A DNA stretch of 64,000 nt from Paraspadella gotoi (lineage: Eukaryota > Animalia > Chaetognatha). Made by a program: the position numbers and the translations under genes. Below are positions 8,901 to 14,900 of this stretch, in pieces (position 1 is the stretch's first letter; every line of letters starts with the position of its first letter). The notes below the pieces were generated by a model. That model worked only from the letters and a program-made list of their open reading frames with translations, did no database searches and was not told where the DNA came from. Where the stretch lies: assembly GCA_051294375.1 (NCBI GenBank), contig CM119269.1, positions 21,189,665-21,253,664 of the forward strand, written 5' to 3'.

Positions 8901-11900
8901 TTACACACTGGCGAAAGGCATGTACTTTTTAGACCTCAAGTAAAACTTGAAGAATTTATAACTTAATTAAAATTTGAAAATTTTAAGGCCATATACATGT
9001 CAGTATTGTCAAGAAACATTTTATAGATGGGATTATTGGAAAAAACATGAAAAAGGACATATTGGAGAGGTGAGATTTTGAGTAAAGCTTAAAATTAATA
9101 GTTTGTATACATCATTTTTAATATTTTTTTTTAAGAATGGAGAAATATTGCCAGTATCACAACCACCAAGTACGAGCAGAGCATTGGTACCTCGTCAGAA
9201 TAACGGTCCAATCGTCCCTGCTGAAAAAAAATTCTTTTGCCAAGAATGTGGAAAAGGATTCACCAGGCATGATAGAAATTATAAATTAAAAATAGTTGTT
9301 ATTCTAACAAAAGGAATATTAATACAGGATGGATAAACTACGCATTCATAACCGCCTTCACACGGGTGTTCGGTAAGGCTCAAGATCCAAGAATTTTAAA
9401 ATTTTTTAATTGATTTGTGCAGTGATTTAATAGTGATCTTGAACCTAATACAGTCCTTACACTTGCAAACATTGTGCAAAAACATTTTATCGATGGGATG
9501 CATGGAAGAGACACGAAACCCGCCATGAAAATAAGGGAGAGGTGAGCAGCATCACACAAGTAAACTGCGCAGTGAAAAATTGGCAAAGCTGAAATTTTAA
9601 TTTTACATAGTAATGGTTGCTTGGTTGCTTAAAGACGAATAATAATTAGTAGGAAAAAAAATAAAAACTAAATTTCTTAATATTGCAGCCTGTAGTTCGT
9701 GAAAAATCCCACATATGTGATGAGTGTGGAAAAGGATTTGCTTTTGGATTTAAATTGAAAATTCATCAGCGTCTACACACTGGCGAAAGACCATACTCTT
9801 GCCGGTATTTTTCTTTCATAAGATTAATATTTCAAATAAATAATTAAATTAATAGATTATAAACTTTTTTAAAGATTTTGTGAAAAAACTTTTTACCGTG
9901 GAGATCACTGGAAAAACCACGAACAGAGCCATCTAAATGGACATATTAAGGGACAGGTAATCAAGATAAAAAGAAAAAACCAAAAACGCACACAAAAAAA
10001 ATTATTGATATCCATTTTTTTTAAAGAATGGGATGCTTGCCATAACTGCTGGAAATTCAGAAAATGGCGCCCTAGTTCCTAATGGCCCTCGCGCTGGTGC
10101 TCTAGTCCCACTTGAAAAAAAATTTCAATGCACCGAATGTGGCAAAGCCTTTACTAGAATGGATAAGTTGAGGATACACAACCGGATTCATACTGGGGTG
10201 ATGCCCTACGGGTGCCAATACTGTGAAAAACGATTTTATCGATGGGACGCATGGAAGCGCCACGAAATTCGCCATAACCAAGAGAAAGGAGAGGTGAGCT
10301 GCGCCACCTAATGTCTCACTGCGCAGTGTATTAAACAGCTCACTTCATAATGGCAATCCAATAGCAACATTATGTAAAATTAAACTTTTCCGTCCTGGCC
10401 AACTTATCACTGCGCAGTGAATGATATTTTCTTCTCACTTTTTTGAAAATTGGAGGAAATAGCCGAGAGGTTAAATTTTAGCTTTATTTCAAACTTCAAT
10501 ACAGCCACCAAATATTTTTATACCGACCTGCTATTTTCTAAATTATGAATTATATTTAATACTTTTATTAACTAGAAATGGAAGTCGATTTAAGAAATTA
10601 ATATTGTATGCAATTATCACAGCCTTTTAAAATTTTTTTAACAAATTACAAAAAACATATAAAATATAAAATTATAAAAAGCGAATAAGGGTGCAATGTT
10701 AAGGAATGTGTGACGTTAAGCAATTCAGAATTTTGAAATGGCTCTTTTTATCTCTTTAAACATCCATTTCTAGTTAATATGGCAATAATCTTTCAAAAGT
10801 TAAATAGCGACATTTTAATTTTCAGCCAATTGTTCGTGAAAAGGTTCATGTTTGTGGAGATTGTGGAAAAGCTTTTGCTTTCACTTTTAAGCTACGAATA
10901 CATCAGGTCAGTTAAAAAAAAAATTTCAATCCTTTTTCCAATTTTTTTAAAAAAAGGAATGTTAAGCAACTTACATTTTTATACTTATAGCGTCTTCATA
11001 CTGGAGAAAGGCCTTACGCATGCAGGTATGAAAATATATTTCATGAATAAAACATGGATATTTAAACGTATTCCCAGTTTTCATTTCACCAACGAAAATG
11101 AATAATACCAATCCTTAAAATGATGTGGCCATATTTTTTTAAAAATTTATCTAATCATTGAAATAAGTTTTCGTTTGATATCAAATATATAGTTGATTGA
11201 ATTTAAGAGAATTTAAATTATAAACTGAAAATCTTAAATTTATATCCTGCTAATAAAAATGAATTTTTTAGGTTCTGCGATAAAACTTTCTATAGAGGCG
11301 ATCATTGGAAAAAGCACGAACAGAGACATATTAGCAAGGGACAGGTACCTCTTTCAATACTTCAAACTTTTCTATCACTGTGCAGTGTTACAATCTTTTT
11401 TTTTAAAATAAACTTGCTGCATAAAAATTTCTATAATTTTTTTGACAACTGTGTGAAACCTATTACCGCCGCAGCCTGGTGATCCAAACAGTGCACTGGC
11501 AATTATAGCTGTGAAGAAACTACCGTGCGAAGCTTGTGGAAAGATGTTCAGTCGAGGAGATAAAATGAGGCTTCATTTTCGAGCGACTCATACAACCGAA
11601 GAAGCTCCCTACTCGTGTGCCTATTGCAACAAACGTTTCTTTCGTTCAGATCATTGGAAGAAACATGAGCAGCGCCACGTTAATCGTGGGCAGGTGAGCA
11701 AAGTGCCACCACAAAGGGAGCTGAAACAAGCCTCGATACAAATGTCCTCAAATTTAAAAAGGTTTTGAACTGAGATGAACTTGAAAGATGGCATGTTTCG
11801 AGTTTCCCTGAAAATTAAGATGCATGACTACCGAATTTAGGTTTAATAGGTTTCAGGTCTCTTGAATAGCAAAGCAATGATAAAGATGAACTATATTTTA

Positions 11901-14900
11901 AGCTTTTCAGGAGTTCTGAAGAACAATACTACCCCGGATTTTATAATTAAAATTTTTTTATATGTATACCTTCTAGAAATCCCTTTATTTTCTTTACTAT
12001 TTTATTTTAAACCAAATAGTAGAGAGCAATAGAAAAACACTGCACAATGATAAGCTCCGAATTCCTATTTTGTTCTTTAACATATTACTCCGTAATCTTC
12101 TGCAAATTAATTTTGAAACTACATTAATTCAAACTTTTTTACTGACAGATCCCGGATAAAAATTTGAATCAGCCGCTAAGAAAAGACAAGAGTCCAACGC
12201 CTAGAGCAATCCTTGCTATATCCGGTAAAATTTGTGTAATTTGTAAAACTTATTTTTTAATATATATTTATAAATAGGAAAGGCTAAAAATTGTTTTTAA
12301 GATTTTTTTTGGGGGGGTCAGATTCAGGTAGCTTGCAAAAAGTTATTTTCAAAAATTCTTTTTTTGATATTTTGATCATAAAACTATTAATAATCTCATT
12401 TTTAAAATAATTGTATTATTTGTTCTTAATTTTGACCAAGAAAACATAAGTTGTGAAAGTTTTAGTTATATTTTTTATTTAACTTTTTATGCTCTATCAA
12501 AATCCATTAAAAAAAGTTAAGATTGATTAAAAAATTTTTTATCATTATATAGTAATATTGTAATTTTCATAGCAACAATAAAAGCAAAAAAATTGAACTT
12601 TTTTGGACGAATCAAATAATTCTGAAAGAAAAAGAAATTTATGCTATAAACTAATTTTCATATTAGTTAGTCATAATGTGAAAGGAATCCAAATTAATTC
12701 AAACATTTAAAATATAAAATCAATGATGAGAAGCAATATCTAAATTTTCAGCTTTATACAATTGCAAACTTTTATAATAAGGCAATGTATAATTTGGGAC
12801 CACCATATAAAAATTGTCGCATGCGCAAACGATTGAAAAATACAAATTTTTAGGACTGTTTAGCAAAAAGGTTATCTTGAAACTTCCCAAAAGCGTCACT
12901 TAATAAAACTTGATTATGGGCGTTGAGTTTGACAGCTTCTGTCCTTACCGTTTGTTTTTTATTTTAACTACCTGCAGATAAACCTCACAATACGTACACG
13001 CCTGCAGCACTGGCATCAGGTTATCCCGGGCCTCCAGCCTTCCCCTCTGCGGAACCATCTATGGTCGGACCAACAAATAACATCAACAGTCAAACTTCAG
13101 GAATCCCTGTACAGAATCGAGGTGATAATTCAAAACCATTTTAGAGAATCTTATTTTGTCTTCACTAAATTGCTTAGAATTATAAAAACTATCAATGCAC
13201 AATAATGTATGCACAACAGGTATGCCTTTTATAACAAACGGTAACGGGCTTCTGCCGGGTGGTGCACCAGGAATTCCTCAAATCAAAACTGAACCAGAGC
13301 TTGGAGGTAAGATACTTAGATGCAAAACAAAAAATGTTTTAAGACAATGGTAATTTGTTTTAAAACAACCTGAAAAAAGTATGTTTTCTTCTGTTTATGT
13401 ATAAGTGTAAAAATTAGAGTAGAGCTCATCACATAAATGAATGACTATCATCGCATCAATATTTGGTTATCGAATTAATAAATTACTATTACATAAATCA
13501 ATCAATTATTATTACATCAATCAATCAATCATTAATATATCAATAAATAAATTACTATTACATCAATCAATAAATTACTATTACATCAATCAATAAATTA
13601 CTATTATATCAATCAATAAATTACTATTACATCAATCAATAAATTACTATTACATCAATCAATAAATTTCAATTACATCAATCAATCAATCAATTACATC
13701 AATAATTCATTATCGCATCAATCATTCATTTTTTTTCCGGATTTTTTTAATTAATTTTCTTTGATAGTAACGTCTGGCGACATCATTATACTTAAGATTT
13801 ATTTTAACAGCTGGATTTGAACATAACGACACATCACCAAAGTTCTGGGGTAACCCCCCTACTGTTGCACACCCAGATGAAGGCGATAATGACGTGATGG
13901 AATATAATGGGCCTCTACCTCCAAACGGGGGACAAAAGTCAGGAGAGCTGACTTCTCTTCAGCCCCCTCAAGGAATGGGAACCAATCAAAATATGGGTGG
14001 CAGCAACCAACAAGGTAAGCTTGGACGGACTTACCTAAACCATAAATTGCAAATGTTATATTTAAAAATTAGCTATGGAAAATATGGATTTTTGAAAGAG
14101 GAATCGAAAGGTGTATGTTAAAAGAAAATCGGTTCAGTCATTTCTGCTCTAAAGTTTTATTTCACTAGTTTTTTAAAAATATCATTGCTCAAAAATGTAC
14201 GGACAAATTGTAACCACATCGCACTAATTGTTTCAGTTTCCATGAATTTAATTGATTTACAATATCTTTTATACTAAAGGAATCTTAGTTTTTGGGTGTT
14301 TTTTTCATAGGTCTGTAGAAGTCTGAATTAGAATTTATATTTATCATCTTCCATAAAAGAAAAAGTTCTACAAAAATTTTGTCCAACATTTAATGAAGTT
14401 CTCTTATACATACTGTTTCTCTTATAATTATTTCTCCTGTATTGTTTGTTGTAATGATTGGTGTTATTGTGTATCTGTATCATTAACTTGATATGAATAA
14501 AAACAGCTCATATAAACTACGGGAATTCGCAGTGAAGAAGAAAGCCTAAGCAAAACGAGCGACAGAACGTAGCCAATAGATATTTGAGTTGAATTATCTA
14601 ATAATATTTTGTATAATAAAAAAAATTAACACTTTAAATTTAATTTCTCTTTACATTATTCCCTTCACAGAACCTTTCATATGTAAACAGTGCGGAAGGA
14701 CATTTGCTAGGGTGGATAAGTTAAAGATTCACCTTAGAATTCACAATAACGACAAGCCATACAGCTGTTCATACTGTGAAAAGGTAAATAAAATATTCTT
14801 TAAAAAATTAAGTAAGGTCCGATCCACAAACTATTTTTGCAATAGTGCTTCACGCGATCTGATCACGCTAAACGACACGAAATGAGACATCCGGAAGCAA

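Follow-up and report, generated by a model that had tools for sequence, protein, structure and literature searches.

A C2H2 zinc-finger gene on the + strand of contig CM119269.1 (assembly GCA_051294375.1) contains an array of tandem modules in which two multi-exon blocks are used as alternatives in spliced RNA, and it is likely that competing long-range stems in the pre-mRNA govern the choice. The window is the whole 64,000-nucleotide (nt) stretch from 21,189,665 to 21,253,664 of the contig; all coordinates below are window positions. In the arrangement that we consider likely, an intronic element at 9563–9631 would pair either upstream (helix X) or downstream (helix Y), so that one block is kept. 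Copies of a palindromic motif at 10317 and 9563 would compete for a copy at 10408, and a further helix (Z) together with a weak acceptor would silence the last module, D.

The gene is a spliced animal gene with exons from about 2970 to 16440. Between 6261 and 11693 lies an array of 11 modules, each encoding one C2H2 zinc-finger pair, in the order A1, B1, C1, A2, B2, C2, A3, B3, A4, B4 and D, followed by constant exon K (12149–12224). The single-exon modules A4 and D match Pfam zf-C2H2. All 11 modules have an open frame, a length divisible by three and phase-0 borders, and any run of modules can therefore be skipped in frame. Module A2 (7846–8255) has three exons encoding a finger pair in an open frame, and 8255 is the donor common to the alternative paths. 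Block 1 (8405–9541) has seven exons and three finger pairs, comprising B2 (8405–8661), C2 (8766–9069) and A3 (9136–9541). Block 2 (9689–10293) has three exons and two finger pairs, comprising B3 (9689–9956) and A4 (10027–10293). Both paths converge on B4 (10826–11344; three exons). D (11475–11693) is a single exon with an intact finger pair and a T-poor acceptor. All of these lie on the + strand, as do the intronic elements described below.

Which modules are joined in RNA? The data are the assembled contigs of one sequencing run (X1), the sole run containing the stretch, which may derive from the source of the window itself. It is not on record as RNA; the GT..AG joints reveal the spliced molecules. 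These joints are 8255|9689 (A2 to B3), 9541|10826 (A3 to B4), 10293|10826 (A4 to B4) and 11344|12149 (B4 to K). A 517-nt contig reads A2-B3-A4-B4, skipping block 1 through 8255|9689, while a 745-nt contig carries B2 letters and then C2 and A3 into B4, skipping block 2 through 9541|10826. Thus blocks B2-C2-A3 and B3-A4 are alternatives in the X1 contigs. Both paths translate without a stop, rejoining B4 and exon K in frame, and the contig depths (26.9 and 15.9) are of the same order, though they are not an expression measure. A third X1 contig joins B4 directly to K, leaving out D, a skip foreseen by an original prediction made from the letters of the window. The A2 to B2 joint is deduced from the record length (221 = 26 + 119 + 76) and a loose end matching the end of B2 exon 1, in a listing of 15 of the 30 joints. 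Among the 12 joints of three records in 9000–12260 there was no A3 to B3, A3 to 12149, A4 to 12149 or D-containing joint, but contigs drop rare variants, so this is not evidence. Two joints that appear to go back (9795 to 9000 and 9916 to 9760) were rejected as back-splicing; they are B2 letters placed on the paralogous B3.

We compared all 66 pairs of inter-module introns for complementarity against 1000 shuffles. The intron pair A3/B3 with A4/B4 ranks first (z 7.6) and A2/B2 with A3/B3 ranks second (z 6.6), scores reached by none of the shuffles, and these are exactly the intron pairs that bracket the two block skips. The top two pairs had been noticed by eye after the joints, while the 66-pair scan itself was unguided. 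All three intron pairs bracketing the observed skips, including that around D, fall within the top 17, for which the chance is 0.015. The first pair contains predicted helix Y (9563–9630 with 10351–10419; 55 base pairs (bp), −63.3 kcal/mol), which would loop out B3-A4 and has the motif pair 9563:10408 as its outer closure. The second contains predicted helix X (8328–8359 with 9600–9631; 28 bp, −33.8 kcal/mol), which would loop out B2-C2-A3. The two helices have 9600–9630 in common and are thus mutually exclusive.

The elements can be assigned as follows. The upstream arm of X (8328–8359) is docking-like and is not a motif copy. The outer Y arm (9563–9595) consists of a motif copy 22 nt after the A3 donor and an oriented flank, and forms 25 bp at −33.7 kcal/mol with 10386–10419. 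The adjoining central element (9596–9631) is shared, its predicted partner being upstream in X or downstream in inner Y. The downstream arm of Y (10351–10420) ends in the palindrome 10407–10420 and appears docking-like for both 9563 and 10317. A further motif copy (10309–10329), 24 nt after the A4 donor, is a predicted local partner of 10408 in hairpin H (10309–10329 with 10407–10429; 19 bp, −28.7 kcal/mol) and an alternative partner of 9563. Folding of individual regions gives X in 8256–9688 (28 bp), Y in 9542–10825 (26 + 30 bp), H in 9957–10825 and H with Z in 10294–12148. When the 2.2 kb from 8256 to 10500 are folded together Y is the minimum, and forced X with H lies 5.9 kcal/mol above it. 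One other potential long-range pairing, 6176–6224 with 10312–10360, is a predicted 38-bp helix (−42.9 kcal/mol) that would loop out A1 to A4 in competition with H and Y; its intron pair has p 0.007, which is not significant over 66 pairs.

The motif core, CACTGCGCAGTG, is its own reverse complement, and every motif copy can therefore pair with every other. The array introns hold four copies with at most one mismatch and five with at most two, at 9563, 10317, 10408, 11376 and 12038; the means of 200 dinucleotide shuffles are 0.0 and 0.025. Outside 4955–12148 the window has no copy at one mismatch and a single copy at two. The motif family gives 14 strand-matches, a number reached in none of 100 shuffles. 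The segment 10407–10420 is a perfect 14-nt palindrome, and the copies at 9563, 10317, 10408 and 11376 mutually pair at −21 to −26 kcal/mol. The motif copies lying 22 and 24 nt past the A3 and A4 donors agree at 11 of 12 positions despite the saturation of A3/A4 fourfold sites. The strings listed in the original prediction all lie where it placed them, 11376 being the start of the 12-mer. Its account missed the palindromy of the motif, the X/Y switch and the copy at 10408, where 9563 and 10317 probably dock. It also proposed a pairing code for the 3′ half of the array separate from the 5′ motif. This was not borne out: 10408 closes the 55-bp stem that competes with the upstream 8328:9600 stem, so that the 3′ half is coupled to the middle of the array and is not a separate code.

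A partial copy at 9415–9426 lies in the internal intron of A3 (9373–9453) and not between modules. It contains a perfect 10-mer complement of 12038–12047, found in 12 of 1000 shuffles. It was discarded as a productive selector: a transcript spliced from its donor to B4 or K would run out of frame into a stop, and none of the folds probed paired it with a motif copy. This 81-nt intron itself folds as a hairpin with arms near both ends, the motif being in the loop.

How might these elements direct splicing? In the mechanism that we propose, copies of CACTG[C/T]GCAGTG would act as closing arms of the competing stems. If X formed, B2-C2-A3 would be looped out and A2 joined to B3, leaving 10317 and 10408 free for the local hairpin and A4 to be joined to B4. 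If Y formed, B3-A4 would be looped out and A3 joined to B4. X could form first during transcription; the palindrome pair 9563:10408 might then serve as a toehold for Y, and early loss of the A2/B2 intron would take away the arm of X. Both the causation and the kinetics are inferred. The copies at 10317 and 9563 would compete for 10408 and could pair mutually as well, something possible only for a palindrome. Z would loop out D, aided by its weak acceptor. The palindromic 11376 could pair upstream instead, exposing D at the expense of B4, but this is disfavoured in the folds: cross-pairings skipping B4 or B4 and D are 12–16 kcal/mol worse than H with Z. Replacement of B4 by D through 10317:11376 or 10408:11376 lies 14.7–16.2 kcal/mol above that structure and is retained only as part of the broader possibility discussed below.

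In predicted helix Z the motif copy at 11376 with its flanks (11373–11389) pairs with a degenerate copy at 12036–12052, 97 nt before the constant acceptor. The original prediction had counted 16 of 17 matches here, and the count is correct; all 16 are Watson–Crick pairs (−23.3 kcal/mol). Such a match between the B4/D and D/K introns was reached in 4 of 2000 shuffles, and by energy in 1 of 300. The D acceptor has 3 T among 17 nt, the most T-poor of 12 acceptors. A search with D gave two ENA proteins at 88%; P0274 and P0276 share 57 of 65 residues with D. The matching proteins are read-through frames into the flanking introns, and the exon ends at the same residue. In the upstream intron peptide of P0275 and P0276 seven residues are identical to translated window 11372–11392, where six were reached in none of 3000 shuffles. 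The element is 87 nt before D in the relative and 82 nt in the window; upstream the intron of the relative extends further (at least 384 nt), and so the spacing that is kept is that to the D acceptor. In six frames of the window the only other six-residue match to the 128-residue peptide is the reverse complement of the 12036–12053 arm, and the rest of the peptide has no further match above 3 residues. The identity of D and the peptide match together indicate that D is a maintained exon and that the 11376 element is conserved in the relative, as judged from the peptide and not from covariation. Pairing of RNA is the likely role of the motif sites, as first suggested. Helix 11373:12036 forms in region folds and has a conserved upstream arm; the match 10403:12038 is at chance level.

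Some further observations concern these elements. The residues ALHN, just upstream of the conserved seven in P0275 and P0276, could encode a 12038-like copy beside the 11376-like element; a local hairpin in the relative is a guess from back-translation. Adenosines 12044 and 12047 form A–C mismatches with cytosines in Z and in 10403:12038. The A–C mismatch is a preferred context of ADAR, and editing at these positions would strengthen the helices. Searches with A4 gave no orthologue: 3 generic matches came from 15 candidates, four metagenome loci at 41–48% had unrelated fingers, and the top 150 of 113,814 representatives proved to be poly-finger proteins of a generic kind. None of the 153 proteins examined carried an A- or B-type signature in its first finger. 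No Rfam match reached the gathering score in 5400–12300, the two matches at E ≤ 1 being far below it.

Several results weigh against the competing-stem mechanism. The helices are computational predictions, and all the RNA evidence comes from one set of assembled contigs. At equilibrium the fold of 8256–10500 is almost only Y (X has 0.07 expected pairs), so kinetics or proteins would be needed to account for the A2 to B3 path. Elsewhere in the window there are 2–37 stems per 7.2 kb at −20 kcal/mol or better, against 12 in the array. Since stems are that common in the real sequence, shuffles overstate their rarity, and the argument rests on position and conservation and not on counts. The motif helices are no weaker, and some are stronger, on the untranscribed strand (for outer Y −38.8 against −33.7 kcal/mol; Z −27.3 against −23.3), while the sense strand is the better one for X and inner Y; overall the comparison of strands is mixed, with 11 of 17 helices favouring sense. 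The intron pair of Z (B4/D with D/K) is only at rank 17 of 66 by gapped score (p 0.12), and a helix of equal length around D arose in 2 of 80 shuffles. The copies at 11376 and 12038 carry matching C>T and G>A changes that fall on one CpG, and what looks like compensation in Z may be decay of that CpG; the CpG observed/expected ratio of the introns is 0.85. Lastly, conservation is seen for the 11376 element only, and through a translated peptide.

A broader possibility is that the self-complementary intron elements, this family together with GGATCGATCC, form an any-to-any switchboard in which each palindrome docks upstream copies and selects downstream ones. We regard this as rather unlikely. 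If true, one locus would assemble a wide set of in-frame zinc-finger arrays, some with D instead of B4, amounting to a combinatorial code of DNA recognition set by RNA folding in a non-arthropod animal, and a duplicated module bearing a palindrome would be skippable from birth. The elements could also pair two transcripts, driving trans-splicing; RNA palindromes reportedly drive pairing between mRNAs (PMC13549266), and pairing-driven trans-splicing is said to occur for sDscam (PMC9258826). The 5′ family GGATCGATCC is also palindromic (TGGATCGATCCA), with copies at 6145–6156, 6658–6669, 7014–7024 and 8706–8719 that pair at −26 to −33 kcal/mol; all five tested pairs favour the sense strand. Their pairings would bracket A1, B1 or A1 to B2. 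The downstream finger exons also have a variant of it, at 14816 in one of their introns.

The palindromes might instead be protein-binding sites, for a dimeric DNA-binding factor or a splicing regulator acting on RNA, with splice-site strength and proteins setting the block choice and pairing a mere by-product of palindromy. Perfect palindromes are typical of dimeric DNA-binding sites, the motif helices have no sense-strand bias, and the acceptor of D, the poorest in T, could be enough alone for its skipping. Yet X as a whole and 43 of the 55 pairs in Y fall outside the palindrome, as oriented, non-palindromic complements, and X and Y bracket exactly the observed skips; we find this explanation improbable.

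A role for 12036–12054 as a shared downstream docking site, choosing among 11376, 10408, 10317 and 9563 and so skipping D, B4 with D or longer blocks, was the view of the original prediction, and is very improbable. The joint from A4 to K would be in frame, that from B4 to K is observed, and the match of 10403–10419 to 12038–12054 is 15 of 17 as first counted, extending beyond the palindrome. However, 15 of 17 was reached in 51 of 500 shuffles of the A4/B4 and D/K introns, and the forced pairing lies 12.3 kcal/mol above H with Z in the folded region. Its two C–A mismatches favour the antisense strand, and it is stronger on the untranscribed strand (−30.2 against −20.5 kcal/mol). With a flank of 8, 12038 pairs at −22.3 kcal/mol with 11376 but at only −11.9 with 9563 and −15.9 with 10317. 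Least probable of all is a neutral origin, with the motifs left over from tandem duplication or from a small inverted-repeat element and the helices part of the background. Long inverted repeats do occur in other window introns, and flanking sequence is common to 10408 and 11376 and likewise to 9563 and 10317. But motif copies remain 11–12 of 12 identical where synonymous sites have become saturated between modules, and a relative has kept the 11376 element while the rest of its intron peptide has no other match above 3 residues.

The consequences for the protein can be considered from its sequence. A3 and A4 have identical recognition residues, and B2 departs from B3 at one position out of eight; the two predicted block products differ mainly by module C2 and linkers, and the isoforms may differ in DNA specificity. 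When paralogous modules are compared, their fourfold sites match almost at random (A3/A4 6 of 19, A1/A3 4 of 17). Intron positions vary among the modules, with none in A4 and D and one or two elsewhere, at offsets of 7–89 nt from the first Cys codon, which suggests intron gain or loss after duplication. GC donors occur at 6319, 8918 and 9267. The first finger of B1 (6735–6750) has the atypical spacing of a single residue between cysteines (C-E-C). Upstream of the array, exons 5658–5742 plus 6022–6082 and exon 5915–5969 look like interleaved alternatives, the joint 5969|6261 being present. A 30-bp helix (5448–5480 with 5743–5775) brackets exon 5658–5742 and touches its donor, and there is a likely 11-nt microexon at 5419–5429.

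The neighbouring USP47 gene lies at 21273–36205 on the − strand. In a quick tree of this gene (46 rows, three too-short rows dropped) the window groups with amphioxus and vertebrates outside the arthropod set, with a Shimodaira–Hasegawa-like approximate likelihood ratio test (SH-aLRT) value of 94. From this one gene, with a long end branch and thin sampling, the lineage is probably not an arthropod. Around USP47 (19343–33730) there are long inverted repeats of 50–115 nt in AT-rich sequence, which are probably mobile-element remnants. Further open reading frames, judged by eye, we take to be furin-like convertase (~44700–51650, −), galactosyltransferase-like (54252–55830, −) and kinesin-like (57877–61650, +) genes.

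Competing stems have been established mostly in insects, both for single exons that exclude each other and for terminal cassettes of several exons. The present locus would carry the principle over to internal, in-frame blocks of zinc-finger pairs, altering the length and order of the predicted DNA-binding array, in an animal placed outside the arthropods by a single-gene tree. With palindromic arms, tandem duplicates could undergo alternative splicing from the outset, which would give such clusters a simple mode of origin. The compact 4-kb region, with its named arms and observed junctions, is amenable to direct testing in a minigene. No literature was found on palindromic docking elements or internal C2H2 blocks in a search of mainly open-access main texts; in PMC12962786 the sole 'palindrom' passage concerns CRISPR.

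How does the array relate to known systems? In single-docking-site clusters the selectors pair with the docking site and not mutually. In Dscam1 exon 6 and the 14-3-3 clusters one docking site reportedly serves many selectors and one exon is chosen (Graveley 2005; Yang et al. 2011). The present array is similar in having short intronic elements near alternative exons complementary to a docking site. It differs in that there is no universal docking site (12038 pairs at −22.3 kcal/mol with 11376 but at −11.9 to −15.9 with 9563, 10317 and 10408), several modules are included at once and the motif copies pair mutually. Tandem multi-exon 3′ cassettes are chosen by competing pairings in Drosophila PGRP-LC, CG42235 and Pip (Pan et al. 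2018, PMC6191721); those cassettes are terminal, whereas the blocks here are internal and rejoin a common exon in frame. The duplication model for competing structures (Ivanov and Pervouchine 2018, PMC6071210) predicts the order a, b″, a″, b′, b, in which b″ precedes a″, and 8328, 9563, 9600, 10317 and 10408 fit the predicted order. The Discussion of that paper covers distinct arms (a, a′), not self-complementary arms with mutually pairing duplicates.

The closest parallels, both with an order of elements equal to that in the array, are Drosophila srp exon 4, where bidirectional pairing and the order of elements were tested by mutagenesis (Yue et al. 2016, PMC4691838), and human ATE1 exons 7a/7b with elements R1–R5, similarly tested (Kalinina et al. 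2020, PMC7797038). Like srp, a zinc-finger transcription factor gene, the array has one element upstream, two between the alternatives and one downstream, in crossing order, and each predicted stem would loop out one alternative. Unlike srp, which chooses between two single exons and whose stems could form a pseudoknot, the blocks here have seven and three exons, the stems overlap by about 30 nt, both outcomes and double skips are in frame, and a palindrome-closed stem has a third, local partner. As in ATE1, where R3 lies between the alternatives and is complementary to two similar competing elements, a central element has two competing predicted partners, and the choice would depend on co-transcriptional folding. 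In ATE1, however, R4 is just upstream of 7b, R3R4 is local, the downstream loop comes from a separate R2R5, and the exons are single. As in srp and ATE1, both paths are found as spliced RNA, and the overlapping order of the X and Y stems is found by computation; the alternatives here are not single paralogous exons. Lacking both single-exon alternatives and a single docking site, the array is thus set apart from the srp/ATE1 and the Dscam1 types, though its working is likely to be of the srp/ATE1 kind.

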